From: Somniosus microcephalus
Taxonomy: Eukaryota
Length of the DNA stretch: 64,000 nucleotides
Assembly: GCA_052327205.1 (NCBI GenBank)
Contig: CM126219.1
Coordinates: forward strand, 51,398,001-51,462,000
Direction: 5' to 3'
Part shown: piece after piece, positions 1-63,556 of the stretch
How positions within the stretch are numbered: the first letter of the stretch is position 1
How the letters are laid out: each line of letters opens with the position of its first letter
Made by a program: the position numbers and the translations under genes
The notes under the pieces: model-generated
The model's database searches: none
Told to the model about the DNA's origin: nothing
What the model saw: only the letters and a program-made list of their open reading frames with translations

Positions 1-397
1 CGATCGCAATCCCTGATAAGAGCCGCGGTGAAACGCGCGAGCGGGTAAGCCAGAGCCCGGGAGGGAGCGAGCAAGAGCCGCGCGAGCGGGTGAGCCAGAG
101 GCCGGGGGCCGCTTTCAAGTGTGAGGCGCAGCCGGGCCATCGATCGCATCCGCTGATAAGGCCCGCACTCGGCCTGAAAGTCAGCGTCGGGGAACGGGTG
201 ATAACCGCCATTGAAGTGGGCGGAGAGCGCCGAGAAGCGCGGGAAAACCGCCATCGAAGTGGGCGGGGAGAGCGAGAAGCGCGGGAAAGCCGCCATTTTT
301 CGCGGGGAAACCGCTGAAGAAGAAGGAAGAAGCGGGAAACCGCCATCTTGGAAATTATTAAGAATTTCAGGAAAGTAATAAGATTTTTCAAAAAGGC

Positions 398-670
398 TGG
401 TGTGTTCTCAAGAAGAGAGGGAAAATAAGTATAAGTACAGCAATACTTGTGGTGTTCTCAAGAAGAGAGAAGAAAATTAATTAGAATTTTCAGAAACAAG
501 AAATAAGTAAAGCAATACTTGTGGTGTTCTCAAGAAGAGAGAAGAAAATTAATTAGAATTTTCAGAAACAAGAAATAAGTAAAGCAATACTGGTGGTGTT
601 CTCAAGAAGAGAAGAAAATTAATAATAAGTAAAGAAATACTTGTGCTGTTCTCGGAAAGAGAAGAAGATG
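398..670 (+). repeat. 72-bp tandem repeat in the element leader (2 full copies plus 3 partial)
   Basis: CAATACTTGTGGTGTTCTCAAGAAGAGAGAAGAAAATTAATTAGAATTTTCAGAAACAAGAAATAAGTAAAG at 441 and 513; partial copies near 398, 585 and 635. Confidence 0.9.
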
Positions 671-3622
671 CCTAAGCGAGGAAATATTAATGATTTTAAT
701 GCTGAAATAGAAGACAGGGCCACGTATGGGGAACGCATAGGAATATATTGCGTAGCCATATACGCCAAGGCAATAACTTTGTTAAATTCGATGGGAGCAA
801 AAACATACGGGCTCTTGAAACATCTAATAGCACCAGTTAAACCAGTGGACCAGACCTTCGAAGAGAGCGTAGCAGTGCTGAAGGATCACTTGAACCCCAC
901 ACCGTTGATACTGGCTGAACGATTTAAATTTTACGCCAGAACCCAGAGGCAAGATGAAAGCAATGCGGAATACTTAGTCGAACTGCGTAAGCTAGCGAAA
1001 TACTGCCAGTTTGGAGGGAATTTGACAGAGGCGCTGCGGGACAAGTTCGTATGCGGCTTGGCCAAAGAAGGAACGCAGAAGCGACTTCTGGAAGAAAACG
1101 ACCTCACACTGGACAGGGCTGTCCTCATAGCTTCATCGCACGAAGCCGCAGCGAAAGGGGCGGCGGAAATGCAGCTAAAGGCGGCGGCACTCGGGGTGGA
1201 CCAAATGACTGCAAGCATTTCCAAATGCTACCGTTGTGGAAAGACAACGCACGACCAGAGTCAGTGCTGGTTTAAGAATCAAGAGTGCAGGAAATGTGGC
1301 AAACTGGGTCACATCGCGAAGGTATGCAGGTCCAGAAAGAAGACCAACAAACAAAGGAAGCCACCACCACAAGAAAAGTACAACAAGGTGCATCAGGTGG
1401 CTGAAAAGAGTTCAGACGAACAAAATTCAGACTCAGACCCAAACAGCCAGGAGTTGGATAGTCTGAGAATCCACAATGTGGGTAAAGTAACTGATCTACA
1501 GACGATCTGGGTCACACTAAAAATAGCTGGAGTCCAAGTACGAATGGAGCTGGACACGGGATCAGCTGTATCAGTCATCAACCAAAAGGACTACCACCGA
1601 CTATTCTCTCACATACCCTTAAGAAATACCAAGTTCGTATTACAGACATACACGGGGCATCGCGTATACCCCATGGGGAAGATAAGAGTCAAGGTGAGAG
1701 ATAGGGGTAAAGTACACCCAAGAATGAATTTGTACGTACTACCTGAGGGAGGACCACCACTTCTAGGACGGGAGTGGATCAAGAAAATAGACATGGAATG
1801 GCACTACCGACAAGCAATGACGAGTGAGGACTCGGTGCAGACAAGCAGCTCAGACTCTGAGCCGGAAGACGATAAGTCCAGCTTATGTATGAAAAACAAG
1901 GTTAACATTAACTCACGGACTAAGGTTGGAAAATCGATGGCGTGCATAAAGACAGAGAATTCTGAGTCTGTTCAAGCTACAGACATATGCATTACGGAGG
2001 AACACCGGGCTCGAACTCAACGCTATTTCAAAGTACAACAACAATTAGAACAATTAAGTTACCGCCTCGTACAAGAGATGAAAACAATGAAAAAGTTCTA
2101 TGACACCGAATGGGAGAGTCTGGAAAGACAACAGAACCTACTGGCTCAAGCAGAGAGCGACCATAGAGCCATCGTGACCAATTACCGATCACATCTCCCT
2201 GATGATGTTCAGGGGTTAGAATATTTGCATGATCTAGAGATACAGCAGAAGGGCAAATCACGCTGCACTGAGGATTTTGTTCTGCAATTAGAGACGGAGC
2301 TAGTGCAGGCAAAGTTAAGAGAAGTTGAATCACAGGGTGCTCTTAAGGAGATGCAGAAACAAATCTTGGACATGGAAAAGAGAAACGCTTCTTTACCTGA
2401 TGAGAATAATGTGGCCATGTTGCAAGAGGAGCTTATAGGGGCGAAACTGAAAGAAGCTAAGCAAAGGATGTTGGAACTTGAAACGCAGAACCAAATCAGC
2501 GGTAATCAGCTATGTCAAGCAGAGAAGGAGTGCAAGGGTCTACATGAGAAGGTGCAATATCTCTCAGCCCAAAATAAGGGACTACTCACTCAGTTAAATG
2601 AAAGTAAACGGGAAATGGCTGAGATGGACTGCAAGAATAAAGAAGAGTTGATGGCAGTGAGACTTCGAGAGGCAGATAGCATAGCAGCCTTGGCTGAACT
2701 CCAACAGGAAATTGCGAAAGAAACAAATGAAGAGGAATCTTCAGGAAGCCAGGATTTTATTCCAGTTCTTCTCTACGACTCCTTACAAGCAGAGTGCGAG
2801 AAGTTGAAAAAACAGTATGAACAGGCCCAGACTACAATTCTGGAGGGGGTTAACTCAGCAACCTCCGAAAAGCTAGTTTCGTTGGAAGTATATGAGCAAC
2901 TAAAGGTTGAACATGAGCAAGAAGTCCAAAGGCTGCAGGAAATTCTTGAGGAGCTCAGGGCCAAGACAGACTCATCGGTAGAAGTTCCATACATAGATGA
3001 GGATGTAGAGGTGAAAGACATGGCAGAACTCATAAAAATATGGAAGGAAGCCCAAGACAAATATGAGGCGGCAATTACCGAGGTTGACCGACTTGAAGAA
3101 CAGTTTCAACTGGGAATGGGCCCTGAACATGAGCTAGAGAGCATCGAGGCGCAACTTCTCCAAGCACTGGAAGCCAAAGTACAAGAGGAAGAGAAGATGA
3201 AAGCATTGGAGAAAATGATGGATGAAATGGAGGAGTACGCTGAATTACGTCCAGGGGAACAGGAGAATGGGGAAACAGCTACTTCAGTAGAAGGATTAAA
3301 TAGCCTGATAACGAAATCCCTGAAGGAAGGGAAAGGATTGAACGCACAAATGAGGCCAGGAGGGAAGGAAGGGCAGACATCCGAGGAAGAGCAGGATGAA
3401 TATGATTGCTTGAAGAAGGGTTTTGACCTGTTGAGTGACACCGAATGTTATGAGGATGTGGTCTGCCCAAATTGTGATGGGAACTCCCAAAGTGCTGAAA
3501 TCCTGAGGAAGCACTTAAGGTCTAAGGAACATAGAGAGTTGGTGGCGCTACAGATGGCAGCCGGGAAAAGAGCTCGGAGAGTTTCAAAAAGGCAGAAAAG
3601 AAAAAGAAGAAGCAGAAAATAA
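668..3622 (+). CDS. gag: Gag-protease fused in frame to ~600 aa of largely host-derived coiled-coil and zinc-finger sequence (984 aa from ATG 668)
   Basis: Uninterrupted ORF. Gag motif [11 protein letters not shown]...LRDKFVCGL, two CCHC knuckles ([28 protein letters not shown]) and protease ELDTGS...LLGREW. Homology to the 61769-62860 Gag-Pro ends at about 1804. Confidence 0.9.
   Translation: [984 protein letters not shown]
1997..2134 (+). other. STK10: Captured STK10(LOK)/SLK coiled-coil fragment
   Basis: [46 protein letters not shown] resembles recalled STK10 [46 protein letters not shown]. Confidence 0.7.
2135..2212 (+). other. Captured C-terminal fragment of an ANKRD24/RAI14/UACA-family protein
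   Basis: [19 protein letters not shown].DDVQ resembles the recalled family C-terminal motif (ANKRD24 ...[26 protein letters not shown]); short match. Confidence 0.5.
2270..2716 (+). other. EVI5: Captured EVI5/EVI5L C-terminal coiled-coil fragment with internal deletion
   Basis: [48 protein letters not shown] and [24 protein letters not shown] are near-verbatim recalled EVI5 motifs. Confidence 0.88.
2720..3115 (+). other. ANKRD24: Captured ANKRD24-like central coiled-coil fragment
   Basis: [25 protein letters not shown] resembles recalled ANKRD24 [44 protein letters not shown] resembles non-mammalian ANKRD24 as I recall it. End boundary approximate. Confidence 0.62.
3443..3619 (+). other. 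DNAJC21: Captured DNAJC21-like C2H2 (JAZ/U1-type) zinc finger and basic tail
   Basis: [34 protein letters not shown] resembles recalled [35 protein letters not shown]. The tail [11 protein letters not shown] resembles KLSKKQKKKKQ. Confidence 0.68.
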
Positions 3623-3890
3623 TAACTGTTTAAAATATTATTACTTCTACTACCTCAGTCCGAACACTACGAAAGGTGCTAAATTTGTAAAAAAAAATCC
3701 AGGGACATTATCAAGACAGCCAGTGGGTTGTATAAGTCCGCACTGCTGGTTCAACAGGACGAAAGTACAAGCTGTTAAAAAAAAAAAAAAAAAAAAGCTA
3801 TGGAGGATGCTGTCTGGAACGAATTAATACCAGAGACTGAATTTATGAACTGTTCCCACAGAGACTGAACCTGTAAACTGATTCCACTGA

Positions 3891-3995
3891 GAGTATGTTT
3901 GTAAACTGTTATATGACGTTGACTCCATTGAGAGTATATCTGTAAATTGTTATATGACGTTGACTCCATCGAGAGTATATCTGCAAACTGTTTAT
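3891..3995 (+). repeat. 41-bp tandem repeat (~2.5 copies) in the 3' untranslated region
   Basis: GAGTAT.T.TGTAAA.TGTTATATGACGTTGACTCCAT.GA at 3891 and 3932, partial at 3973. Confidence 0.85.
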
Positions 3996-4056
3996 ATAAA
4001 GTTGAAGATTGTATGTTTAACGGGATTCTGTAAGTAATAAGCTAGGAAGGGAGGAG

Positions 4057-4309
4057 TGTTGTGTATGTAACCGTTTACCTTTAAGGGAACTATAGAATGT
4101 AACCGTTCGCCTTTAAGAGCACTACTTTAGGGTGGCACTATCTATTGGCTCATGTATACTGTAATACCGATAGTGACCACACCAGTATATAAGGGTTGTG
4201 ATACGTTAACTAGGGCAGAATCGCCCGAGCCGCTGAATAGTAAAGACGTGTTTTATTCTGTTAACAGTGGAGTCTGTGATTATTTATAATACAACCCACA
4301 GACTTAACA
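4057..4309 (+). repeat. 3' LTR of the chimeric Gypsy element
   Basis: Begins TGTT directly after the PPT and ends AACA. TATATAA box near 4186 and AGTAAA polyA-like signal. Core motif shared with the LTRs at 58715 and 63365. Confidence 0.85.
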
Positions 4310-7300
4310 CATATGACAGATGTCAGGTTGAGAATACAAGTGAGAATCAAGCTGAATATAGAAAGTTCAGAGGGGAAGTGAAAAAGAAAATAAGAGGGGC
4401 AAAGAGAGAGTATGAGAATAGACTGGCAGCTAACATAAAAGGGAATTTAAAAAGTCTTCTACAGACATATTATAAATAATAAACGGGTAGTAAGAAAAGG
4501 GGTGGGGCTGACTAGGGATGAAAAAGGAGACCTACACATGGAGGCAGAGGGCATGGCGGAGGTACTAGATATGTACTTTGCCTCTGTCTTCACCAAGGAA
4601 GAAGATGCTGCCAAAGTCATAGTGAAAGAGGAGGTAGTGGAGTTACTGGATGGGCTAAAAATTGATAAAGAGGAGGTACTAGAAAGGCTGTCTGAGCTTA
4701 AATTTGATAAGTCACCAGGACCGGATGGGATGCATACTAGGATGCTGAGGGAGGTTAAGGAGGAAATCACAGAGGCACTGGCCATAATATTCCAATCCTC
4801 CTTAGAAATGGGGGTGGTGCCAGAGGACTGGAGAATTGCAAATGTTACACACTTGTTCAAAAAAGGGTGTAAGGATAAACCCAGCAACTATAGGCCAGTC
4901 AGTTTAACCTCGGTGGTGGGAAGCTTTTGGAAATGATAATCAGGGACAAAGTTAATGGTCACTTGGACAAGTGTGGATTAATTAAGGAAGGCCAGCATGG
5001 ATTTGTTAAAGGCAAATCATGTTTAACTAACTTGATCAAGTTTTTTGATGAGGAGAGAGGGTTGATGTGGGCAATGCGGTTGACGTGGTGTATATGGACT
5101 TCCAAAAGGCGTTTGATAAAGTGCCAGCAAAGTTGAAGCACATGGAATAAAAGGGGCAGTGGCAGCATGGATATGAAATTGGCTGAGTGACAGGAAACTG
5201 AGAGTAGTGGTGAACGGTTGTTTTTCGGACTGGAGGAAGGTATACAGTGGTGTTCCCCAGGGGTCAGTACTAGGACCACTGCTTTTCTTGATATATATTA
5301 ATGACTTGGACTTGGGAATACAGGGCACAATTTCAAAATTTGCAGATGACACAAAACTTGGAGGTATAGTGAACAGTGAGGAGGATAGTGATAGACTTCA
5401 GGAAGACATAGACAGGTTGGTGAAATGGGCGGACACGTGGCAGATTAAATTTAACGCAGAAAAGTGCAAAGTGATACATTTTGGTAGGACAAATGAGGAG
5501 AGACAATATAAACTAAAGGGTACAATCCTAAAGCGGGTGCATGAACAGAGATACCTGGGGGTATATGTGCACAAATCGTTGAAGGTGGTAGTGCAAGTTG
5601 AGAAAGAAGTTAAAAAAGCATACGGGATCCTGGGCTTCATAAATAGAGGTACAGAGTACAAAAGCAAGGAAGCTATGATGAACCTGTATAAAACACTGGT
5701 TCGGCCTCAACTGGAGTATTATGTCCAATTCTGGGCACTGCACTTTAGGAAGGATTTGAAGGCCTTAGAGAAGGTGTAGAAAAGATTTATGAAAATGATT
5801 CCAGGGATGAAGGACTTCAGTTACGTGGATAGACTAGAGAAGCTGGCGTTGTTCTCCTTAGAGCAGAGAAGGTTGAGAGGAGATTTGATAGAGGTGTTCA
5901 AAATCATGAGGGGTCTCGACAGAGTAGAGAGAGAAAAACTGTTCCAATTGGTGGAAGGGTCGAGAACCAGAGGACGCAGAGTCAAGGGCCGCGATTTCGC
6001 CTACCTCAGTGGGTCCGGTGCGGCCAGGGTCAGTGGCGGGGTGTGACCCCGCTGCTGGCCCCAGCCCGCTCTGCAGAGTGATCTTACGTTGATTGGGCTT
6101 GTTAAGCCTGCCCAGCGTGTTTCCTGGCCAATTGAAGGAAGCGGGTCTGATGATGTCACTTGTTGACGCGTCATCAGCTGGTTTCCTTAAAGGGACCATA
6201 CGCAAAGTTATTTTGACATTTGCGTTGTCAGTGTTCTACAGCATTGAGGTGCTGCAAACACTGACAAGCACTGCACAGAGGTGCATGGCTGCACCCAGGC
6301 TCTCCCATGACTCCCTCCATATGCTTAAGGAGGGAGTCACAGCACGCAGAGAAGTGCTCTTCCTTTCCCATGGGCGGAAGACACTTCCACAAGAGATCAA
6401 TGCAGCCTGGTTGTACAATGCACAGGAGACACAAGCAGGGATGTGGTCAGGAGGACCAAGCTGCAATAGTGCAAACCTTTCAAGGATCTCAGTAGATCAC
6501 AAAACATTACTGCAAAGCCACACTCAACCTCATCTTGCTGTGCCACTCATCAAATCCCCATCACTCTGCCTTCCCTACCCTACTCCTGCACATCCTTACT
6601 CACACCAACTTACCTTGTACCTCCACCCATCCCTCTCGTTCCCCATCTCACTAGCCACCCCTCACACTCAGCCTCATCCTAGTCCAATCATACCAACTAA
6701 CAACACACAAGGGTAGGCACTTGGGTGTTTTAGCCAATGTTCATGTGAAGTTTCTGTTAATGTGCTGTCAAACATTGAAATCTTTATTTTCAATACTTTG
6801 CCTTCTTGGACAGATTTGTGTGCACCTTTGGAAGTGGCTTAGTGAGTTGCAGTGAATGGTGAGACATAATGGTATGCCCTGCAATGGCGATGAGTGTGAA
6901 AGGAATGGCTTGGGCATTGTAGGGATGCTTTATGGTGTTGGTGTGGGGTGGTGCCAACCTGGCACATCATGTGGCAGCCAGTGTGTACAGCGCTAAGTGA
7001 AGTAAATCTGGCCATGGTGAGGCCATCCCTGGCGTCCCAGGCAGCAATGTGGTCGGGCGACGATGCCCTGTGTCCTGTGCAGAATCAGGTGATTGCGGAG
7101 AAGGTTGGTGTTGTTGTTGGTGCTGCTGGTGTGCCTGGTGCTGCTCATGTTGGGACTCATCTTGGTGGGATTCAGAGGACCAAGGTGAGATAGTTTCAAG
7201 TGCACTGATGCTGATGTAATAGATGGCAGGTGAAGTTGAGATGACAGAAGCAAATCTGTCAATGGTCAGAGAGGTTGTTCCAATGAGTTGGCACTGGATA

Positions 7301-8040: not shown

Positions 8041-8761
8041 ACACTCAGATTTATTTCTAGAGGGATTCAATTGAAAAGTAGAAAACTTGTATCGAACCTT
8101 GGCTAGACCACACTTCGTACAATTCTGGTCGCCATATTATAAAAAGGATATAGAAGCACTGCAGAGGGTGCAAAAAAGATTTACAAGGATGATACCAGAA
8201 ATTCGAGGGTATACCTATCAGGAAAGGATGAATAGGCTGGGTCTCTTTTCTCTTGAAAAAAGCAGGCTGAGGGGTGACCTAATAGAAGTCTTTAAAATTA
8301 TGAAAGGTTTTGATAGAGTGAATACAGAGAGAATGTTTCCACTTGTGGGGAAGAGCAAAACTAGAGGCCATCAATATAAGATAGTCACCAAGAAATCCAA
8401 TAGGGAATTCAGAAGGTACTTCTTTACCCAGAGAGTGATGAGAATGTGGCACTCGCTACCACAGGGAGTGGTTGAAGTGAATAGTGTAGATGCATTTAAG
8501 GGGAGGCTAGACAAGCATATGAGGGAGAAGGGAATAGAGGGTTATGCTGATAGATTTAGATGAAGAAAGACAGGAGGAGGCGCGAGTGGAGCATAAACAC
8601 CAGCATGGGCTGGTTGGGCCGAATGGACTCTAGTATTTTCCATGTTGTTATAAATGTTTCTGTGTACCCTGGGCTGGAGTTTCTGCTAGGTTGCGCTGTT
8701 TGGCACGGACTGTTGGGCCGAATGGCCTGTTTCTGTGCTGTATATCCTATGTAACCCTATG
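8041..8761 (+). mobile_element. CR1 LINE 3' fragment
   Basis: LQRVQKRFTRMIP...RLRGDLIEVFKI...FFTQRV ORF2 C-terminus and CR1 3' UTR GGCCGAATGGCCTGTTTCTG. Confidence 0.9.
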
Positions 8762-9819
8762 ACTACACTGTAAAAGTACTTAATTAGCTGGAAATTTGGG
8801 ACATCCTGAGGCCAACTGAGCTATATAAATGCAAGTTTTTTTTTATGTTCAACAATCTCTTGCCAAATTCCAAGGACGGTATGAACAAACTAAAATTAAC
8901 CTTCAGAATCATGTCATGAGAAAAATAACACATGGAAATAAAAGTCACATTCAGTTATATAGAAAATGAAGCTCCTTTAAAACTTAAAAAGCATCTTGTT
9001 CACACAAAACTGGTCAAAATCATTTACTAATTATATTGGGGTACAGTACTCAGTTTCTTAGTAAAGTAAAAAAAACTCAAAAGCTCTAAAATGTGCCTAT
9101 TAGTGTCCTTATGCCTAGAAAAGGCTTAATTTTTAGAGCCTCCTCGAAGGACTGGCGCAATTAGCAGGAACTCGCAATGGTGATTAATTCGATCTGGGGG
9201 CATGGCCAGTTTTGTGGGCAGAGCCAGCTTCTAGCGTGATGTCTTTTCAACTGGTGCAAAAGATCCCTGGAAACGCGATTTGCGCTGAATGTAATTTGTG
9301 CTTAGAATTCCTCAAACTTTGGCGCTGGTTTGCTCAGTTTTGGGTGAATTGCGCTGATAAAACAGTGCAACCTTGCAGAAACTCCCGCCCAGGGTATACA
9401 GAAACATTTATAACAACATGGAAAATACGAGAGTCCATTGGCTGATAGAATGGGATCCTCATAGAAATGGAGGCGAGGGAATGGGTGGTGGAGCAGATAA
9501 TGAAAGTATGGAATCAGTAGGGGAAGGAGCATCTCAGTAACAGAGTCCTCCATCTGAGAGAGACAGAAGGGCAGCACAGGAGAAATATGCATGTTCTACC
9601 AAACTCACGGGGTTATAAAAATTGTAGCTGATGATCTTTTCCCCACTTTTAACCTGTGAAATATTAGATCATTATAGAGTTCATTGCCTCTCCGTTTCTG
9701 AGCGCACAGGGGGCTCTGTTTAACTGCCGGCCGCTCCATTTACGAAGCGTCCAATGGTTGAAAATGGCAGGGATTGAGCAGCCACCCCTTGCACGCCCAA
9801 GGCCAGCCTGATGCAAGTT

Positions 9820-28992: not shown

Positions 28993-30252
28993 ATGGGAGC
29001 CATTTATTTCCTTCCCTTCTGGGCATTAGATGAGGAAGAAGAGCAGCTGCGGCACCAGCAGAACCAGGAACAACAGCAGCACCAACAGGAGCAGCACCAA
29101 CAGGAGCACCAAGCTGCTGATCACCCACCTGAAGCTGCACAGGCCAGAAGGGGCCAGCACATGGAAGCCCGTCAGCGCAGGAGATACCCCCCAAACAGGG
29201 TCTACAGACACAGGGTCAGCTACCTCAACATGTCTGAGCAGCAGTGCCAAAGGCGGCTCTGACTTTCGTGAGAGGTAGTGGGTGACATCTGCGCAATGCT
29301 GCAACAACATCTGCAGGTCAAAGGATCAGGTGGACAACCCTTACCAGTGGCCATCAAAGTCACCACCGCACTCAGCATTTTTGCCTCAGGCTCATTCCAG
29401 GGATCAGCAGCAGACATCAGCGGCATCTCCCAGGCGGCCGCACACACTTGCATCACGCAGGCAACCGATGCCCTCTTTGCCATCGCGCACAATCACATCC
29501 ATTTCACGAAGGATCAAGCAAGTATCACGGCGCGTGCGGTTGGATTAGCTAATCTGGCAGGATTTCCAAGGGTGCAGGGCGTCGTTGACTACACACATGT
29601 GGCCCTTAAGGCACCCCATTGCAATCCAGGTATTTTTGTCAATCGCAAGGGCTTCCACTCCCTTAAAGTTCAGCTGGTGTCAGACCACAAGAAGGAAATT
29701 TTGCATGTTTGTGCTGAGTACCCTGGCAGTTGCCATGACTCCTTCATACTGCGCCAGTCTAGTGTGCCTCCACTCTTTAGTCCGCCAGACCAACTTAACA
29801 GATGGCTACTTGGAGACAAGGGCTATCCCCTGAGGACGTGGCTAATGACGCCGTTGAGGAGACCAGCCAACAAAGCTGAGGAGCGCTACAACTCCAGCCA
29901 CATGTCCACCAGATCCATTATCGAGCAAACCATTGGTTTGCTGAAGATGCGCTTCAGATGCCTGGATAGATCAGGTGGAGCCCTGCAGTACTCAGCAGCC
30001 AGGGTCTCCAGAATGGTCGTGGTTTGCTGTGCACTTCACAACATGGCACAGTGTCGTGGCTTGCAGATTCCTGAGGACCAAGTAGCTCCTCACTTATCCT
30101 CCTCAGATGAGGAGGAGGAGGAGAAGGAGGAGGAGGAGGAGGAGAGCGAAAACGAACATCTTGCAGAGGCCCATCAACCAGCGGCAGCTGTATGCAAGAA
30201 CATAGCTGCCCGGGATGCAAGGTATGCACTCATCTTTGCCAGATTTGCTTAG
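28993..30252 (+). pseudogene. Harbinger (HARBI1-like) DDE transposase with one in-frame stop at 29260-29262
   Basis: [32 protein letters not shown] and [15 protein letters not shown] motifs; the 28993 and 29278 ORFs are in the same frame. Confidence 0.92.
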
Positions 30253-50089: not shown

Positions 50090-53000
50090 GGGTGCCCCGT
50101 GGCCGCGATGGCAATCGGCAATGCAGGCAAGCTGCTCTTCATCACAGATACCCTCGCCGGCCATCGGTTCCTGTGCGATACCGGAGTGCAGTGCAGCATT
50201 CTACCTGCGTCAGCTCTTGATGTACAGGCTGGGAGGCATGGCCTCCCCCTTGAAGCGGCTAATGGCGGAGCTATTCGGACCTTCGGCAGACAGCGGGTCC
50301 AGGTGTGCTTCGGCGGCCAGCGGTTTTTCTGGGAATTCGTTACGGCCAAGGTTTCGCAAGCCATTCTCGGCGCAGATTTCCTGTGTGCCAACGGCCTCCT
50401 GGTCGATGTAAGGAACCGACGGCTGATCAGCGCGGCCACGTTTCACTCTATCGCTTGCCACCGTAGTAACACCATGTCACGCACCGTCTCCTGCACTTTC
50501 CCAACTCCGAATGAGTTCGCTCGCCTGCTAGGCGAATTTCCAGACCTGACCAGGCCCACATTCTCCTCCACGGCCATGAAGCATGGTGCACTACCGGCCC
50601 CCCGGTCCACGCGCGGGCCCGGTGCCTCGAACCTGGCAAGCTAGCGGTCGCGAAGGCGGAGTTCGCAACAATGGAACGCTTAGGGATTATTCGCAGGTCG
50701 AATAGTCCCTGGTCTTCACCTTTTCACATTGTACCGAAACCTGGCGGCGGATGGCGGCCCTGCGGCGATTATCGGCGCCTAAACGACGCCACCACTCCTG
50801 ATCGGTACCCGATCCCCCACATCCAGGCCATTTGGCAGGAAACACCGTTTTTTCCAAGGTTGACCTTGTCCGAGGCTACCACCAGGTCCCGGTACACCCG
50901 CAAGATGTCCAGAAGACCGCAGTCATCACCCCTTTCGGTCTCTTCGAATTTTTAAGGATGCCGTTTGGGTTGAAGAACGCCGCCCAGGCTTTCCAGCGCT
51001 TCATGGACTCCGTGCTGCGGGACCTCAAGTTCCTTTTCATCTACTTAGACGATATCCTCATTGCCAGTCCTAATAAGGAGGAACACATCTCTTACCTTCG
51101 CACCCTCTTTCGACGCCTCAGCCAACACGGCCTGATTATCAACCCAGCCAAGTGTCAGTTTGGTCTGCACCAAATTGATTTCCTGGGATATCGCATTACC
51201 TCAGAGGGAGCGGTTCCTTTGCAAGTGAAGGTAGAGGCGGTGACATCCTTTCCACGCCCGCAGAACATAAAGGCCCTGCAGGAGTTCCTCGGGATGGTAA
51301 AATTTTACCACCGTTTCGTGCCTAAGGCAGCACTGCTCATGCAGCCCCTGTACGAGGCCCTCAAGGGCAAGTCTGGCAAGGATCCAGTGGGCTGGATGGT
51401 TGACATGGACCGGGCATTCACCGACACCAAGAGCTCCTTAACCAACGCGGCCATGCTGGCGCACCCGCTACCAGGAGCCACCATCGCCCTCACCACCGAT
51501 GCGTCAGATTACGCAATCGGCGCCGTTCAGGAGCAGTGGGTGAACGGGACGTGGCAGCTGTTGGCATTCTTCAGCCGTCAACTGCGGCGTAACGAACGGG
51601 CGTACAGTACTTTCGACAGGGAGTTACTAGCCCTTTTTCTGGCCATCCGCCATTTCCGGTTCTTGTTGGAAGGACATCCTTTCACCGCTTTCGTCGACCA
51701 TAAGCCACTGACTTTTGCATTGGCCAAGACCACCGAACCGTGGTCATCTCGACAACAATGTCAGCTGACATACATCTCCGAATTTACCACAGATATTCAG
51801 CACGTGGCCGGTAAAGACAACCTGGTGGTAGATTGCCTCTCCCACGCGACCGTGCATGCGGTCCAGCTGGGCATCGACTACGCCCTCATGGCAGCAGACC
51901 AAGTCTCAGACCCAGAGGTGCAGGCTTACCGCACCAATGCCACTAGCCTCCAGTTGGCCGACGTCAGGTTCCATTCGGCTGGTACCACGTTGCTGTGTGA
52001 CGTCTCCGTTCGGAACCCTCGCCCTATTGTGCCGGTCGCTTGGCGCCGCAAGGTGTTTGACGCCATACATGGGTTGTCACACCCAGGAATGAAGGCTTCT
52101 CAGAAGCTAATATCATCTAAGTTCGTTTGGTGGGGCAGGCATAAAGATGTCCACGACTGGGCCAACACCTGCGTGGTCTGCCAAAAGGCCAAGGTACAGT
52201 GCCACATCAAGGCTCCATTGGCCACCTTTGCAGTTCCTGAGCGACGGTTTGACCACGTTAATGTGGACCTGGTAGGACCACTTCCACCTTCCCATGGTTT
52301 TACGCACATCCTGACCATAGTAGATCGCACCACCAGATGGCCGGAGGTGGTTCCCCTGTCATCTACTACTTTGGCGGATGTGGCCAGGGCATTCATCTCT
52401 TCATGGGTCGCCCGTTTTGGAGTGCCTGCTGACATCTCTTTGGACCAGGGACCGCAGTTTTCCTCCGAACTTTGGAATGCGGTGGCTCAACGACTCGGTG
52501 TCAAGTTACACCGCACCACAGCCTACCACCCACAAGCGAACTGTCTGTGCGAACGTTTTCACAGATCGCTTAAGGCCGCACTGAGGGCCAGCCTCCAAGA
52601 CGCTGGATGGGCATACAAGCTGCCGTGGGTCATGTTGGGCCTTCGCATGGCCCCCAAGGAAGATCTTCACTCTTCTGCGGCAGAGCTCGTTTATGGTCAG
52701 CCGCTGCGAGTGCCAGGGGATTTCCTGCCAACACCAACGGAGCCATGGTCCGCCTCACGCCAGCTTATCAGTCACCAGGAAGCAGCCAGATGTTTCGCAC
52801 CGGTTCCCACATTGCATCACAGGTTTCAGGGCTCTCATGTTCCAGCGGAGCTGAAACAAGCCGACTACGTGTTCATCCACCACGATGCTCACCGGGATCC
52901 ACTCAAGGCCCCATACACTGGTCCTTTCTGCGTGTTAGTGGCAGGAGACAAAACCTTCAAGGTGGATGTCGGTGGTAAACCGGACCACATTTCGGTCGAC

Positions 53001-53227
53001 CGTTTGAAGCCAGCACACCTGGACCTTGACCGTCCCGTCGAGACCGCACAGCCACCGAGACAGGGTCGGCCGCCCACCGTCGTCACGCCAGAACAAGTGC
53101 AACCACCCGCCAGACCGCCCGCCGTCCAACAGCTTCCGCTTCGGGAATACAGGAGTCGTTCTGACAGGCTTGTCAGACCCCCTCACCGTTTGACTTTTTC
53201 TGTTAAAGACAATTCTGGGGGGGTGCA
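50090..53227 (+). pseudogene. pol: pol (PR-RT-RNaseH-IN) with frameshifts
   Basis: [29 protein letters not shown] zinc motif, DLVGP...DQG...ERFH and PYTGPF. Confidence 0.93.
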
Positions 53228-54054
53228 TGTGGCAGAGCCACTGAGGGACTCTGAACAACTGTATATAATTCCCTTTAATTATGTGTTAGCTACAGACTAA
53301 ATCTGTACCATTGTATATACTGTTTGCATGTACAGTGTGCGGTCCCTTTAAGAGCGCGGGCAAACGCGATGACGTCATGCCGCTAATCACGTGATCACCC
53401 AAACGCGGGAAAAACGTGATGACGTCATGACGCCATCCACGGGACCGCCCGGCAGTCCTCGTGCAGCCTCCGACCTGTTAAGACCTGTATTCATAGTTCT
53501 CTTGCATCAATCTGTTTAAACTCGTTAGTTTGACATTAAAAACCTTTTTGATTGATTGTCTGCGTCGAACTTAATCTCTAGATAGGAATTTGACCATTCC
53601 TACAATATCACTATAAAATGGACAGATTGTTTAGACAACATCTTGGGAAATGGTCTTTGGAAAGAGAACACCTAAAGATAAAAGGCACTTTGATATGCAC
53701 AAAGCGAGTGGGATCAACAAGGTCATAAAACATGTACTAGGTATCAGATAGCTGGTTGCAGTCACGTAGGCAAAAGAAAGGAAAGTGTATAAAGATACAG
53801 ATATTGAACACTGAAGGCAGCGTGAACCAAGTAATCAGAGTTGAAGGAGCTTCAGTCGACAGAACACAGCAAGAAACCAGAGAAGCGAGCTTCAGTTAAG
53901 AGAAAACAGCAAGAAAATAAAGAGACCACGCCACAGTCGCTCGGAAGGAATGCTGAGGCTCAAATGAACAAGACTGTGACTATCTCCTTGTTAAGTATTA
54001 CTTCTTTGTACTGGATATTTAATGCTTAATAAACCTGTTTTACTGATACACAAT

Positions 54055-55055: not shown

Positions 55056-58000
55056 TCAAACATGAAATGTAGTGACAAAGTCCTGTAGGTGGCCATGGCG
55101 AGAACGTGTACGAACAGGCCGAGGTGTGGACTGGTGAAGTGCAGGCCGAAGTGGGGACTGCTGAGGAGCAGGCTGAGGCACAACATCTGTTTGGGGGTTG
55201 GCTGGCTGAGTCACATGTGCATCCCGCCACTCTGGGGGTAAAGCTTGGGGGTTAGGTTCGTATAATCCCGCATCAGGGGGTGCTGGCACCTTCCGAAGGC
55301 AGCTGGCATGCCACCGAGAGCCGTCAGTGAGGCAGAAAGTGGCTGGTCCAAGTTGGTGGCTGATTTGGAGAGGGGAGGACCAGGATGATGCCATCTTATT
55401 GTTGCGGTGAGGCCTGCGGACTCTGACCCAATTGGAGACTGAGATGTTGGGCGCCTTGGCCCTCTTCGACTGGTCGAAGCGGAGTTTCATCTTCTCCTGC
55501 TGTCTAGCAACTGTGGCTTGAGCCGGTGGAGCAGGGCTCTGAGCTAGCGAGGGGCGGAGCCTGCCAAGGGGCAGCATGAGCTCACGGCCTAGCATGAGGG
55601 ATGCGGATGAGACCCCTGTAGTGGAATGCTGGGAGGCTCTGGAATGCAGCAGTGTGTGGAGGAGGGCCTTGTCAAATGCACACCCCTGGGATAGGTGTGC
55701 TCTGAGGCCATTTTTCAGTGTCTGGTTAAAACGCTCCACCCCCCCATTTGATTCGGGGTGGTAGTACGCTGTGCGAATGTGACGGATGCCCTTGCTCTCA
55801 AGGTAAGAGGAGAGTTCCGAAGAGACCATTTGGGGGCCATTGTCTGTGGTGATGGCCTTTGGATACCCCCAGCGGGAGAAGAGGGACTCAAGGATATCAA
55901 TGATGACCCGAGAGGTGACGGAGCCCACGGCAGTGACCTCTGGCCATTTTGAGTGCAGGTCATAGGTCACCACTAGGAACCGTTGATGGTGAGGGACACC
56001 ATGGATCTCCCCGCAGACGTCCAGCTGCAGGTGCTCCCAGGGCTGAGAGGGCCAGGCAAGGGGTTGCAGGGGTGGGGGAGCCAGTCTTGCCACTTACAAG
56101 GCAGGCTGCACAGTCCTTGACCAGGGCCTCGATTTCCCTGTCGATACCCGGCCACCACACTAGGTCTCGGCATCATTGTTTGAGCTTCACTATGCCCAAG
56201 TGGCCCTCATGCGCCATGGATAAAACACGCGCACGAAGGGCACTTGGGACCACAGTGCAGAGCCCACGTGCAACACAGGAGTCATTCCAGCAGGAGAGCT
56301 CCTCTTTAACTCTGGAGTAGGCAGACAGTTCCTCAGGCACCTTGCGAGGCCAGCCATCTCTGATGATGGTGCACAGCTGGGAGAGGGCCGGATCCTGTTC
56401 AGAGGCTTCTTTGAGCTCCTGGAGAGAGACTGTGGTTTGGAGAGGCGTGTGCAGCATCTGGACGATATCCTGTTCCACATGTTCAGACCCGACGAGTGGG
56501 GCTGGGGCAGAGACAGTGCGGGAGAGCAGATCTGCAACAACATTGTCACGTCCTGGTGTGAACTGGAGACTGAAATTGTATTGGCGGAGGTGGTCAGACC
56601 AGCGGTGTAGACGCAGTGGTCTGTGGCCCGTGCCGGATGTCGACAGCAGGGCAGTGAGAGCCTGGTGATCGGTTCGCAGGGTGAAGGCATGGCCATACGT
56701 GTACAGGTGCCACCGCTCACATGCCCAGACGCACGCCAGCGCCTCACGCTCGCCTACTGAGTACTTCTGTTCGGTGGGGCTAAGGGCTCGTGAGGCAAAG
56801 GCGATTGGTTTCTCCACTCCATTCTGTATCTGCGATAACACCACCCCCACAGCTGCAGCGGACGCGTCGCAGGTGACGAGGGTGGGGCTGGCGACGTCAA
56901 AGTGAGTCAACACTGGAGGCGACGTGAGCTGCGATTTGAGGAGGCGAACAGCTTCTGTACAGGCTTGTGACCACACCCAGGGCTCATCCTTTTGCAGGAG
57001 CTGGCGCAGTGGAGCTGTGGTGGCTGAGTACTGGGGCAAAAACTTCAGGTAGTACCCAGTCATGCAAAGGAAGGAGGCAACCTGTGCTGCAGAGCTGGGT
57101 TCTGGGATGCTGTGAATGGCATCCACGTTTGACTGGAGTGGGGATATACCGTCAGCCGACAACCGAAACCACACATATTCGATCTCTGAAACAGCAAAGA
57201 CACACTTTTCACCATTCAGTGTGAGCTTGTGTTTTGCTAGAGCTGTGAAAACTCTGTGAAGGCATTCGTCATGAGTGGAGGTCGAGGGCCCATGCACGAC
57301 GATGTCATCCAGGTAGATGGCCACCCCAGGAATGCCCGCGAGCACAGAGGACATCACCTTTTGGAAGCAGCTGGGTGCAGAGCTAAGTCCAAGTGGCATC
57401 CTGGTGTACCGAAAGACGCCAGCATGTGTCACAAAAGCAGTGAGTTCCCTGCTGCTGGGGTGGAGGGGAACCTGTAGATAGCCCTGTCGAAGGTCCAGTT
57501 TTGAGAACAGGATGGAACCATAGAACTGCGCTGTGAATTCCTCTGACGTGGGCAGTGGATACTTGTCAGGGATTACGGCCTTATTCACTGCTCGAAGATC
57601 GACACAGACGCGTAGACCACCTGACTTTTTTGTTGCGACCACCAAGTTGGAGACCCATGGGGAGGCATCAACTTGTTTGATGATGCCGGCTTCCAGTAGC
57701 TGCTTTAGTTCAGCTGTGACCCCGTCACGGAGAGCAAGCGGGATGCGGCGCAGTGGCTGAATGACAGGGGTAATGGTGGAGTCAACCATGGGCTGGTGGG
57801 TGAAGGCAGTCAGGCAGCCCAGACCCTCGAAGAGTGCTGGCCATGTTTGGCGCCACGGTGAGGCGATGTGCAGAATCGCAGACCCGCCGGTGTCCAAGAG
57901 AGAAAAACCCAGGTCAGTGAAAAGATCCAGTCCCATCAGGTTAGCTCCTTGGCGTGCCACATGAAAACAAAAATCTGGCAAAACTTTTGTTCCATAGCGT

Positions 58001-58714
58001 ACAGTGAGGTTGACTGAGCCCACTAGTCCAATTTTCAAATTACCATACCCGCAAAGGGTAGTGGAGGGCGCAGAGAGTGGCAGGGAGCTGAAAAAGCGTT
58101 TGAATGTGTCCACATTCAGCAGTGAGACGCTGACACCGGTATCCAACAACAGCGGGATGCATACATCATTCAGGTTAATTGTGCATGACTTGAAAGCCAC
58201 TACTGGCCCAGAGCTCACGTTGTGAATTATAGTGCTTGAGGACTGAGAGTGTTCATTTGTAGCAACCGGGGCAGAGCGGCAGACATTGGCAAAGTGATTT
58301 TGTTTTCCACAATTGCGACAGGCTTGGCCGCGCGCGGGGCAATTCTGCGCTCTGGTAGCATGTGAACGAGATCTGCAGTTTCCACACTGTTGCCGCGGTA
58401 GCGCGCGTTGCTACCGTCGCGCGAGCATTACCGTGTCAGAGCTGTCGGGCCAAGGGTGCTGTCACTGGGTGTGTGTGCTAGTTTTGCTGCACATTCGGCT
58501 GCAGACTCCAATTGAAAGGCAATGTTGACTGCCTGTGACAACGGCAGATCGTCGGACTCGAGTAATAGTCTTTCAGGCACTCTCAAATTGTTTGTGTCCT
58601 CTATTAGTTGATCACGCACCATCTTATCTTGTAGTGCACCGAACTTGCATGAGCTAGCTAACCCCCTCAAATTAGCCACGTGTTGATGCACCGACTCGCC
58701 GAGGAGTTGGTGAC
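55056..58714 (-). pseudogene. pol: gag(3' part)-pol of the outer element (gag 5' part at 63557-63865)
   Basis: LLDTG, RVCVDLR, YLDD, CDAS, HEGHLG, TDNG...VERFN; RRFIFRQRH|QLLGESV rejoins across the insertion. Confidence 0.93.
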
Positions 58715-61700
58715 TGTTATGCCCGTGTATAATCAGACACAGACTGCGGAGAACGGTACAAACAGTGTTTACTCAACGTGGCTCAAACTGCAACTGATCT
58801 GTACAGATTACTACTCAACGTTATATACAGGTGTGGTCACTGCCGGTACTACAGTATACATGAGCTGTAAAAATTAGTTACCCCCCTTAAAGGTACATAC
58901 ATTACAATTCCTCCCCTTTTAGATTAACAGTACCATAACACTCATTTAACAATTAAATATCAAACTAATTACAATTAACACTTTTAACATGCAACATTAG
59001 CTGAAAATAGTCTATTTATAAATTCAGTCTTTGGGGAGGCTTCCTGATCCTTTCTGGATAGCGCCTTTCCCGAGTGTCTTGCTCTTGGTGCGGAGGCGAT
59101 TCTGGCCCCCTGTCGTCGGTTGGTTCATCAGCTTCCGATGCTACTGTTTCTGGGGTAGATGCTACCTGTACGTCGAGTTCATCACCAGGTACGTATGGGC
59201 AAGGCATGGGGTTGACTTGTTCCTGTGACTCTAGGATCTGGTCAGCATGGCGTCTCACGATGCTCTCCCCAACGTCCACTGTGTACATTAGTGGGCCCTG
59301 CCGTGTGCATATCGTTCCTGGCTGCCATTTTTCTGTTCGGTAGTTGCGGGCCAAGACTGGTTGCCCTACATTGAAGCTCCTTGTTGGCTTCTCATGGATG
59401 TGCTGGAATTGCTTACTCTCAACATCTCTTCGTACGTTTGATCTGAGCAAATCCAGGCGAGATCTTAACCTTCGGTTAAAGAACATCATGGCTGGGGCCT
59501 GGTTGGTGACTGCATGTGTCGCATTCCGGTAGGCGAACAGGAAATTGTCCACCTTGTGCTGCAGCGGAATGTTGTCATTGTACATAGCCTTTATTGCCTT
59601 CTTAAAGGTTTGTACGAACCTCTCAGCCAATCCATTTGTGGCTGGATGATACGGGGCGGATGTGTAATGCCTTACCCCATTCTTTTTCAAGAACCTCCAG
59701 AACTCTTCGGACACGAACTGTGGTCCGTTGTCGGAGCAAATCTGTTCTGGCAAGCCATTCCTGGCAAAAATGGCCCGTAGGACTGCAATAGTTTTCTCCG
59801 TGGTGGTGGAGGACATTTTGATGACCTCAGGCCATTTCGAGTGCGCATCCACGGCTATTAAAAACATTGAGTCCATGAATGGACCAGCAAAATCAATATG
59901 CACCCGTTGCCATGGAGATGAGGGCTACTCCCATGGGTGTAGAGGGGCCTGTGGTGGTGCATTTTGGACTTTCTGGCATCCTGAGCAGCTCTTGGTCAGG
60001 TTCTCGATTTGTTTACCGATTCCCGGCCACCACACATAAGCCCTGGCTAGGCTTTTCATTTTTACCCCTCCCAGATGACCCTCATGAAGCTCATTGAGCA
60101 TTCTATCCCTTAACTTGGGTCGAATTACCACGCGGGATCCACACATCAAGGTCCCCCAGCACACTGACAGCTGTTCTCTCCTTGTCGAGAATGCTTGCAA
60201 CAGTGAGTCGCCATGTGCTGGCCATCCCTTCACCTTCAAATCATATACCCGAGACAGTGTCGGGTCATTTTGGGTTTCCTTTTCAATACAAGCGTTAGTT
60301 ACCGGTCGGTTTTCAACTATAGTCGAATGGAATATTTCGACAGGATCCACTGCTGCTGCTTCCTCCACAGTAGGCAGTGGCAGGCGTGATAGCCCATCAG
60401 CATTTCCATGCTGTTTCGTGCCCTTATATTCAATCTCATAGCGGTGCGCCCCTAGAAGAAGTGACCATCTTTGTAGTCGTTGCGCAGTCATCACCGGAAC
60501 GCCCTTCTTCGGATTAAAAATGGAGACAAGAGGCTGGTGATCAGTCAGCAAGGTGAATTTCTGCCCGTGCAGATAGTGATTGAAGTTTTTCACTCCCCAC
60601 ACTAGGCTGAGGGCCTCCCTGTCAATCTGGGCGTAGTTACACTCGGCTGAGGTTAGTGATCATGACGCAAAGGCTATTGGCCTCCCTGAGCCGTCTGAGA
60701 ATTTGTGCGACAGCACCGCTCCAATGCCGTAGGGTGACGCATCACATGCCAACCGAATTGGTAATGCCGGGTTGTAATGGGCCAATACCTCTTTCGATGT
60801 GATTAGTGTTTTGCTCTTCTGGAAAGCTCGTCTACATTCATCACTCCACTTCCATGGCACCCCAGTTTGCAGTAGGGTGTTCAGTGGGTGTCGTATTGTA
60901 GACAAATTTGGCAAGAACTTATGGTAGTAGTTTACCAGCCCGAGGAACGACCTCAGTTGTGACACATTTTCCGGTGCTGGAGCCTTGACTACTGCTTCAA
61001 TCTTCTCTGGGACTTATGTAACCCCTCTTTATCGATAACGTGGCCACAATACGAGATCTGTTTTCTAAAAAGCTCGCATTTGGGGCGGTTAGCTCGGAGC
61101 CCATATTCCTGCAATCTAGTGAGCCCCTGCTCCAGGTTGGCAAGGTGATCACTGTCATTTTCGCCCATGACCAGGATATCGTCCAAATAACACTGGGTCC
61201 CTGGGATCCCTTGCAGGACTTGTTCCATTGCCCTCTGCCAAATAGCCGGAGCTGATGCTACCCCGAATACCAGCCGGTTGTATTGGTAGAGACCTTTATG
61301 GGTGTTGATTGTGAGGTATTTTTTTGATGCTTCTTCTACCTCCATTTGCAGATACGCCTGGGCCAGATCAATCTTAGTGAAGCGTTCCCCTCCAGATAGC
61401 GAGGCGAAAATATCTTCAATCCGCGGAAGTAGATATTGTACGGTGTGAAGGACCGGGTTCACTGTTACCTTAAAGTCCCCACAGATGCGAACCTTCCTTG
61501 GTTCCCCAGGCGCGTTGCTCAATGACTTTTTCTTCACAGGGATGATGGGTGTAGCCCACTCGCTCCAGTCTACCTTGGACAGTACACCTGAACGTTCCAG
61601 ACTCTCCAGCTCTGCTTTGACGGCTGGGCGGATCGCATAAGGTACCGGTCTGGCCTTAAAAAATTTTGGACTTGTGTTTTCTTCAATTTTAATCGTCGCT

Positions 61701-63556
61701 GTCATGCCTTTTAGTGTTCCGAGTCCTTGCTGGAACACTTCTTTCGCGTCAGTTAGGATCTTTGACAGTCACCCAGGTGTGACGTTGTCATCCTTTTTGT
61801 CAGCCACAGTCAGTGCCTGTATGGAATGCCAATCCAGTTGTATTTTCCGGATCCATTCACGTCCCAGTAATGGTGGTCCTCCATCTTGCAATACATACAG
61901 GTCTAGTTTTGGTGTTTCCTTACCGTTATATATAACGGTCACCCTTATTTTTCCTTTGGGGTAGACTTTTTGCCCCGTGTACGTCTTCAAAATAATTTTT
62001 GTGTCTCTCAAGGGTATGTGTGAGAATAGCCGCTCGTAGTCCCATCGGTTTATGACTCTTAGGGCTGATCCTGTGTCCAATTCCATCTTTACCTGGACTC
62101 CTGCTATCTTGAGAGTGACCCAAATGGTTCGATGATCCTCTGTTGTGATCACATTATGTAGTTTCAGACAACTCAGTTCCCTGCTTTCGGAGTCGTTATC
62201 ACTCTTTTGTTCGTCTGAACTATTCTCCGTTATCTTATGCACCTTCTTGTACTTTCCTTTGGTCGGTTTGTTATTGCTAGTTTTCTTTCCCGACCTGCAG
62301 ACTCGTGCTATGTGTCCTACTTTTCCACACTGTCTGCACACTTTGTCTTTGAACCAGCAATCATTCTGGTCGTGTGTTGTTCTGCCGCAGCGATAGCACT
62401 TCTCTGTTCCATATGACATTTCAGATAAAAGCCGTTTCTGGGTTCCTTCACTTTGAAGCCCACACACAAACTTGTCCCTTAAGGTATCTGCCAGGCCCGC
62501 TCCAAACTGGCAGTGTTTCGATAGTTTGCGCAGTTCTGTTAAATAATCAGCATTGCTTTCATCCTTATGCTGGTTCCGTTTGTGAAACTTGAATCTTTCT
62601 GCTATCAGCAGCGGTGTGGGGTTTAAATGTTCCTTTAGTATCGTTACTATGTCTTCAAAACTCTTTTCCATTGGCTTCGTTGTGGTTACTAGACTTCGCA
62701 ATAACCCATACGTCTTTGCACCCATTAAATTCAACAATACCGACGCTTTCTTGTCATCTGACACCTCATTTGCCTTGCAGTACACCTCTATTCGTTCGAC
62801 ATATATTTTCCAATCTTCGACTTCATTGTCAAATGCGGTGATACTGCCACTCTTCGGCATTTTGGGTGTGGTTTAAAATGGCGTCTCCCAATGGCTTAAA
62901 ATGGTGTCTCCCGCGCTTTCCTTCCTCCCCCGCTGCTGCCGGTTCTCGTGGCAATGGCGGCACCTCGCGGGTTTCTGCGCGTCTCTCTCTCCCTCTCTCC
63001 GACGCTGCTCGGCCCCTGAACACCGGCTGCGCCCTGTGCGCTCTGCCCTCTCGCTCTCTCCCCCGTCGACGCTGCTCGGCCCTTTGCTGTGCCGCTCGGT
63101 CGGGCTCTAACCCGCCACTGTCCGGGAAGGGTCTGCGCACTACCTGTTGCCAGCCCGTTTCGCTGGACCACCTCGACTGGAAAGCCAAGCCTAGCGCTCA
63201 ACAGCCTCCCCCGCAATTCTCGAGTCTCTGCTGGATGACTGGGCGGTTGCCCGTGGTCGACGCCCGAGTCTCTGGCCTTGACCTCCAATCCACTGATCTT
63301 CAGGAACGAATCCCCGGGAGGTGATGCAGAGTCGCAGGTAGGTTCGAACCTGCCTCGCCGCCAATGTTCCGTCCATGTATAATCAGACACAGACTGCAGA
63401 GAACGGTACAAACGGTGTTTACTCAACGTGGCTCAGACTGCAACTGATCTGTACAGATTACTACTCAACTTTATATACAGGTGTGGTCACTGCCGGTACA
63501 ACAGTATACATGAGCTGTAAAAAGTAGTTCCCCCCCTTAAAGGTACATACATTACA
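58715..63556 (-). mobile_element. Nested full-length Ty3/Gypsy provirus (LTRs 58715-58906, 63365-63556)
   Basis: 5-bp TSD GTGAC on both sides, TG...CA LTRs, PBS TGGCGGCGAGG, PPT AAAAGGGGAGGAA. Confidence 0.97.
59016..62860 (-). pseudogene. pol: gag-pol of the nested element, with several stops and a frameshift
   Basis: Gag with two CCHC knuckles, ELDTGS, RICGDFK, YLDD, CDAS, HIDFAGP...SDNG...AERFV. Confidence 0.95.

Follow-up and report, generated by a model that had tools for sequence, protein, structure and literature searches.

How can a Gypsy retrotransposon that has lost its polymerase carry a single reading frame of 984 codons, and where does the rest of that frame come from? The question is raised by a 64,000-nucleotide (nt) stretch of the Somniosus microcephalus genome (assembly GCA_052327205.1, contig CM126219.1, positions 51,398,001 to 51,462,000), referred to here as the window, in which one stop-free open reading frame (ORF) runs from 668 to 3622 on the forward strand and encodes a protein of 984 amino acids (aa), P0001. 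Ty3/Gypsy elements, including the non-autonomous forms that encode only Gag, are characterized by long terminal repeats (LTRs), a primer binding site (PBS), a polypurine tract (PPT), a 5-bp target site duplication (TSD), a Gag with two zinc knuckles, and a protease. The shark element differs from these in that its reverse transcriptase (RT), RNase H, and integrase have been replaced by in-frame host exons. Its family is real and very young; the members are non-autonomous Gypsy elements with a high copy number that arose through the capture of RNAs, one nested within another, and the order of the captured exons indicates that three of the templates were very probably circular RNAs.

The original prediction, made from the sequence of the window, had placed the 984-aa ORF in a Gypsy element ending in a PPT and an LTR. 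This has been confirmed, and identical LTRs and a TSD can now be added. The element is complete, with a 5' LTR, a PBS-like motif, a PPT, and a 3' LTR. The 5' LTR lies just outside the window (G000:C18:51397560-51397812, where G000 is the shark genome) and is identical to the 3' LTR at 4057..4309 (253 bp, TG...CA); this LTR and the PBS-like motif are found 440-177 bases before the window. All parts of the element are on the forward strand. The leader (1..667) contains 72-nt tandem repeats at 431-646 and GC-rich short repeats and is followed by the fusion ORF of Gag-protease and host-derived cargo (668..3622), the PPT (4045..4056), the 3' LTR, and the 3' copy of the 5-bp TSD (4310..4314). In Pfam searches, the two CCHC knuckles of Gag (668..1330) are detected at 1223-1270 (aa 186-201, E 0.09) and 1283-1330 (aa 206-221, E 5e-4), the aspartic protease at 1511..1783 (aa 282-372, PF13650, E 2.5e-5), and a weak C2H2 finger at aa 921-958. 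The same search finds no RT, RNase H, or integrase family in P0001, in agreement with the earlier statement that retroelement homology ends after the protease. Gag, the knuckles, and the protease had also been described as intact, which holds for both knuckles and the protease but not for the Gag N-terminus; compared with 7 of 30 sister copies, the first 35 residues of the window copy have lost 4 aa in a deletion and differ by three substitutions. Between the end of the ORF and the 3' LTR lie 435 nt, and a stop placed after the protease would leave ~2.3 kb untranslated. Tandem repeats of 28 and 41 nt occupy 3831-4001 in the 3' untranslated region (UTR) of the element.

The cargo blocks have been compared with exons fetched from the same genome and show 77-98% nt identity to them, with the introns absent. 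The first block (1822..2136) consists of exons b, d, and e of an STK10/SLK-family gene on C8 (G000:C8:167.19 Mb, 77-87% nt identity) and includes the start of the PKK coiled coil. The gene is presumably STK10 rather than SLK; the two score equally on the one exon tested. The block is followed by a late exon, Z, of an ANKRD24-family gene (2147..2212, 92.5% nt identity), the start of the big exon X of the same gene (2213..2229), an EVI5 insert (2230..2715, 86-98% nt identity to host exons at G000:C3:347.97-348.01 Mb), and the resumed exon X (2716..3232), which has in-frame deletions of 24 and 51 nt. An optineurin-derived block (3233..3418) comes next and is the remnant of six exons that are kept in linear order in the sister element L052. 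The frame ends in a zinc finger and basic tail (3424..3605) that derive from spliced exons of a host gene located at G000:C1:4.79 Mb. A remnant of the STK10-family exons a and b (3608..3778) then follows out of frame; it is the closing part of the proposed STK10-family circle, and both the stop codon and the beginning of the 3' UTR fall within it. An A-run at 3777-3796, inside this remnant, is not a terminal poly(A) tail.

The identification of these genes differs in precision from block to block. EVI5 is a direct protein match (E 9e-65, the best matches being from sharks) with its host gene on C3, and an ANKRD24/ankycorbin-family protein was found by phmmer, with its host gene on C13. The name ANKRD24 is a family-level call, the aa identity being 66% to a protein from a ray that is called ankycorbin and 35% to turtle ANKRD24. 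The optineurin host gene is on C17, downstream of a NEMO-domain exon. The zinc-finger gene is presumably DNAJC21, a name that the comparisons did not confirm. In 24.5 kb of sequence and with two patterns, no exon preceding the zinc-finger exon could be located, and the nearest J-domain exons are 2.1 Mb off on the wrong side. A PF21884 match on C17, considered as DNAJC21, reads as another gene (presumably DNAJC2). The J-domain and zinc-finger exons at G000:C1 2.67 Mb and 4.79 Mb (minus strand) are in the wrong order for one gene, and this region of C1 is possibly mis-scaffolded. In word-index searches, cargo residues 1-112 and 490-605 have no protein match at E<=10; the ESM Atlas returned only generic coiled-coil and C2H2 leads (<0.9) for the first and last blocks, and in the PDB the whole cargo is unmatched and the zinc finger matches generic fingers only. 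It was only by comparison with older sister elements and host exons that the first and last blocks were identified. An acceptor-side pattern for one EVI5 exon gave no match. Genome searches gave 16,569 first-look candidates for PKK, many in long frames, and 13,820 for EVI5, and the former led to the older relatives. The proteins P0129-P0167, considered as similar chimeras, are EVI5 or ANKRD24-family proteins of the ordinary kind. An intronless 277-aa frame at L039:400-1230 (minus strand), 89-98% identical in aa to four or five C-terminal STK10-family exons, looks like a processed copy of the STK10-family gene. Of the block identities given by the original prediction, the STK10/SLK, ANKRD24-family, and EVI5 assignments stand on fetched host exons, DNAJC21 is unconfirmed, and the optineurin block had been missed. 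The two ANKRD24 blocks had been read as separate, and they are one capture that was later split by the EVI5 insert.

The order of the exons within the blocks is what points to circular templates. In the ANKRD24 piece, the late exon Z ends exactly at its splice donor and is joined at 2212/2213 to the first base of the upstream big exon X, which begins exactly at its splice acceptor. The EVI5 insert is circularly permuted and reads as the end of exon E, a back-splice at 2245/2246, and exons A, B/C, D, and the rest of E; the last exon ends at its donor and continues with the first base of the exon four places upstream. In the relative L037, the end of STK10-family exon e is joined to the start of exon a, again in back-splice order. 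AG/GT borders are present at the fetched host exons, and the joint from donor to upstream acceptor is exact to the base in all three genes. In EVI5, entry is 16 nt upstream of the exon E end and exit immediately precedes the same point; the ANKRD24 exon is split by the insert without loss. With exon sizes counted by hand from translations, the five EVI5 exons amount to 226 codons (678 nt), which becomes 486 nt after subtraction of an internal deletion of 64 codons (192 nt) in B/C; this is the length skipped by RNA reads of relatives that lack EVI5 (joint 2229>2716). Similarly, the STK10 insert of L037, which is flanked by the protease linker on one side and an integrase-like tail on the other, has its entry and its exit within one stretch of 11-14 nt in exon b. 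Because the entry and exit points are the same in EVI5 and STK10, each insert would represent one full turn around a circle.

Based on these junctions, the capture of circular RNA by the element is very probable for ANKRD24, EVI5, and STK10. The original prediction had proposed serial capture of spliced mRNAs by RT; serial capture in place of RT, RNase H, and integrase is supported, while three of the templates are back-spliced and were probably circular RNAs. Several observations weigh against circular templates. The optineurin and zinc-finger pieces keep only linear exon order, the ANKRD24 piece is less than a full turn, and the STK10 back-splice junction, absent from the window copy, occurs in L037 only, with a shortened form in L036. 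The parent circular RNAs are predicted from back-splice joints in genomic copies, and transcripts of the element carry these joints as well. The reversed joints could instead have come from linear RNAs, either trans-spliced or exon-repeated transcripts or RT jumps onto exon ends. Exon ends do share short motifs (often CAG/G), and non-colinear junctions can arise in other ways, as noted in the account of Dong et al. 2016 (PMC4897178). Such an origin would need three precise jumps per gene, and it would have to produce a base-exact donor-to-upstream-acceptor joint in three genes, two of which return to the exact point of entry without gain or loss of sequence. Furthermore, the seven elements compared contain only exons that belong to the inferred circles, as far as exons from outside the circles, which were partly fetched, could be matched. 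We consider a linear origin improbable.

The order in which the pieces were acquired can be read from sister elements, which retain an integrase C-terminal tail behind the cargo. L036:3-3137 and L037:1185-4307 (minus strand) combine in one frame Gag-protease, the STK10-family circle (93-100% nt identity to the host), and titin-like Ig domains, of which there are two to three; an extra insert in L036 gives a weak match to an autophagy-receptor zinc finger (E 0.0015). L051 and L052 carry PKK, optineurin, and the zinc finger and have neither ANKRD24 nor EVI5. The subfamilies of L051, L052, and L056 hold STK10, optineurin, and zinc-finger pieces only, and two motifs from them matched 496 and 830 times in the genome. 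These subfamilies differ in the reading frame of their last 100 codons. L041 has ANKRD24 without EVI5, with one stop and two frameshifts. It lies (L041:721-5001 with L047:1-611, minus strand) in the antisense direction within an intron of the very ANKRD24-family gene to which its captured exons correspond, and its LTR pair is 98.9% alike over 174 nt. L035 and L038 have the same cargo as the window copy with fewer deletions. The synonymous distances to host exons, 0.31 for STK10, 0.28 for the zinc finger, 0.06 for ANKRD24, and 0.10 for EVI5 (0.04-0.05 for EVI5 in L035/L038), broadly track the nesting order and fall inward. At the five junctions inspected, stretches of 4-11 nt are shared and represent candidate microhomology of the kind expected in template switching. 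Between the window copy and L038, dS is 0.39 for Gag-protease (668-1800) and 0.066 for the cargo; the far greater divergence of the former indicates that the 5' half of the window copy was swapped by recombination.

These observations can be combined into a history in which an RT-encoding relative would move the element in trans, and the RT in the particle would switch templates where short sequences are shared, moving onto host RNAs packaged with the element and then returning. An STK10-family circle would first have replaced RT, RNase H, and integrase; optineurin and the zinc-finger gene would then have been inserted inside the STK10 piece, followed by an ANKRD24-family circle and, inside the ANKRD24 piece, an EVI5 circle. 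The nesting order is taken from the sister elements, and the circular template is what we infer. Spreading lineages would keep one frame from the start of Gag to ~435 nt before the 3' LTR, with the cargo residues drifting near-neutrally. This history as a whole, a trans-mobilized Gypsy element with nested captures that include three circles and a frame that is kept open, is the best explanation we have and a likely one. A relative that encodes the missing machinery, in broken form, lies in the window itself. At 58715-63556 (minus strand), a related full-type Gypsy element has gag, protease, RT, RNase H, and integrase broken by stops between 192-bp LTRs that are 94% alike. It is 56% identical in aa to P0001 over Gag-protease, and its integrase tail resembles that of L036, L037, and L052. 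The presence of RT, RNase H, and integrase in this relative, and their absence from P0001, places the window element in a Gypsy lineage as a non-autonomous member. Among 150 scored members of the RT family of this relative, frames of up to 1,321 aa occur; they show only that related RT frames exist, and the helper itself is postulated.

The number of copies bears on whether the chimera is real. A search of the genome with the cargo DNA gave 3,286 first-look candidates, and 40 of the 40 that were scored cover the whole 1,818-nt cargo at ~100% on many contigs. A 31-mer across the EVI5 junction of the subfamily is found at 705 genomic sites and a 28-mer across the ANKRD24 junction at 4,009, with 0 for each control. 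Paired identical LTRs (TG...CA) and a separate 5-bp TSD for each insertion are present in all four copies checked. An assembly artefact or one-off chimera is hardly credible in view of these full-length matches, the distinct flanks and TSDs, and the presence of at least half of the cargo's words in 10 public runs under three organism labels. The copy count suggested by the original prediction has returned many LTR-flanked copies with TSDs; matches to host exons exist, the element is not a single copy, and its junctions are supported by the repeated occurrence of the EVI5 junction at 705 sites. Among 30 young copies (the window's own included), which are the best-scoring of the 3,286 candidates and therefore biased to the youngest, the cargo differs by 0-1 base and every ORF is open, with a length of 984 aa in 11 copies, 879 in 11, 988 in seven, and 980 in one. 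An in-frame loss of 887-1201, or 105 Gag residues, is found in 11 of the 30. The two such copies that were checked, L001 and L006, have TSDs and identical LTRs and are proper new insertions, and the deletion is also present in RNA (32 and 23 reads in two RNA runs). In L013, a PBS-like motif directly follows the 3' LTR, as in a tandem copy. L034 has a second LTR upstream that is 81% alike, and the flank of L006 resembles the protease region; these flanks suggest insertion into an older clan member.

Transcription of the family has been examined in the same two RNA runs, X23 and X24, which were added by species label, a label that may differ from the species of the genome; the run index names no RNA run among the holders of the cargo's words. 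The numbers of RNA records on 640-3770 are 5,646 of 16.7 million and 2,964 of 14.4 million, and 30 of 30 bins are covered in both runs. The strand bias in X23 is strong (28-426 vs 0.4-21), consistent with sense transcription across the whole ORF at the level of the family. A depth of 69 over 3160-3264 in X23 spans the 189-nt deletion of the window's subfamily. As points on the other side, the strands are mixed in X24 and most reads come from sister subfamilies.

The remaining question is why the frame has stayed open. The original prediction had noted an in-frame passage through every capture, and this is borne out by 984 codons without a stop and by indels that keep the frame in 7 of 7 cases against L035 and 6 of 6 against L038. 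Relative to host exons, the 485 cargo codons compared give a dN/dS of 0.94 (Sd 46, Nd 122, optineurin left out; rough 95% range, by hand, 0.67-1.33), and the value is 0.97-1.12 relative to L035/L038. The 122 missense changes would be expected to come with 8.5-10 nonsense changes; the cargo has none (chance ~1e-4). The main target of selection seems to be the openness of the frame and not the protein sequence, because no stops are found where ~9 are expected, cargo dN/dS is ~0.94, and 11 of 30 copies lack the 105 Gag residues.

The fusion protein itself had been proposed as the target of selection, as a particle scaffold, a helper hijacker, or a decoy of host coiled-coil partners with a Gag-protease-coiled-coil-zinc finger-nuclear localization signal architecture. 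The length of the open frame would fit this proposal, as would the dN/dS of 0.14-0.48 for Gag-protease between subfamilies, which does indicate some protein-level selection there and tells against selection on the frame alone; part of this constraint may have been inherited from helpers by recombination. A basic cluster ends the window copy, L035, L036, and L037, cargo dN/dS relative to the host is 0.49-0.91 in six relatives, which are older copies, and a segment of optineurin that presumably is the LC3-binding motif is kept in L052. The near-neutral cargo of the window copy speaks against it, as do in-frame deletions of 24, 48, 51, 111, and 189 nt that cut through the cargo modules, the unrelated cargo of other subfamilies (e.g., titin-like Ig domains), and the spread of the Gag-deleted variant. 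Selection for the protein is therefore doubtful.

An open frame could also be unselected, the product of codon-phased microhomology, luck, and copy choice. Switches between coding sequences are plausibly biased in frame, a late frame change near the 3' end has been tolerated, and the window was chosen for its long ORF. The same ascertainment counts against selection on the frame more generally, since L035-L038 were chosen from matches with long open frames and the 30 young copies were the best-scoring, and L041 and L052 have broken frames. This explanation does not predict the lack of stops; moreover, the lineage of the latest 705-copy burst is open, and so are five other long-ORF relatives with different cargo. 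We regard an unselected frame as quite improbable. For selection on the open frame, an RNA-level reason is marginally favored, in which translated filler would avoid a 2.3-kb untranslated tail and the decay that it brings, or would hold the RNA on ribosomes for packaging.

The window has further features besides this element. A DDE_Tnp_4 transposase frame lies at 29272-30252 (plus strand), and two other partial Gypsy pol frames at 50802-53300 (plus strand) and 55056-58410 (minus strand). Every other long transposable element frame in the window had been described as broken, which is not the case; frames of 832 and 745 aa exist, both of them partial pol pieces. At 8622-9439, 80-nt inverted arms, 94% complementary and 658 nt apart, resemble those of a miniature inverted-repeat transposable element.

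Related phenomena have been described in other organisms. Tan et al. 2016 (PMC5131818) reported LTR-mediated multi-gene retrocopies in animals and a template-switch model. As in the cases described there, host RNA pieces replace the internal ORFs between LTR ends to form multi-gene chimeras, with sense transcription and further non-autonomous rounds; the short stretches shared at the switch points may correspond to the microsimilarity reported there. Unlike those cases, of which a few to ten per species are given in that report, the shark element is nested five deep, is in frame with Gag-protease, and is present in hundreds to thousands of copies. Three of its cargoes are back-spliced, whereas the main text of PMC5131818 does not contain the string "circ". 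The maize Bs1 element, as treated in the same paper, is an LTR element with exonic pieces of three host genes, shared switch points, and one to five copies per Zea species. It is alike in being recopied with host exons; the shark element carries pieces of five genes and has more than 700 copies in its youngest subfamily, and it has back-splices, which the passages describing Bs1 do not mention. In mouse, Dong et al. 2016 described 33 high-confidence copies of circRFWD2 that are enriched for flanking LTR sequence, by a mechanism that the paper calls mysterious. The shark captures resemble such circular RNA (circRNA)-derived pseudogenes in that true splice sites are joined in reversed exon order in a genomic copy, and differ in that the inferred circles lie inside the coding region of a spreading Gypsy element with entry and exit points, intermediates, and the open frame kept. 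The shark element also differs from a domesticated Gag gene, which is a single fixed locus under purifying selection that has lost its LTRs, in its 705 copies, identical LTRs, and cargo dN/dS of 0.94. No report of a Gypsy family with such cargo was found in literature listings that cover few subscription journals, and the family may already exist unannotated in repeat databases.

The copies have practical consequences, as they will make gene families in such shark genomes look larger than they are (16,569 PKK and 13,820 EVI5 first-look candidates) and will mimic back-splice reads in circRNA surveys. They represent exon shuffling by an LTR element at thousands of copies in a vertebrate and point to selection on the translation of retroelement RNA regardless of the protein made. 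If circle capture is true, it supplies a mechanism for circRNA-derived pseudogenes, at far higher copy number, and the entry points, exit points, and intermediates kept three times in one lineage make the copying of circRNA into the genome testable. It is somewhat likely that this Gypsy clan takes up and reverse-transcribes host circular RNAs as a matter of routine, adding one turn per insertion to its own frame, and is under selection to keep them as a translated frame, possibly yielding Gag-fused proteins that affect the host. If so, its thousands of copies are a nested, datable record of germline circular RNAs.

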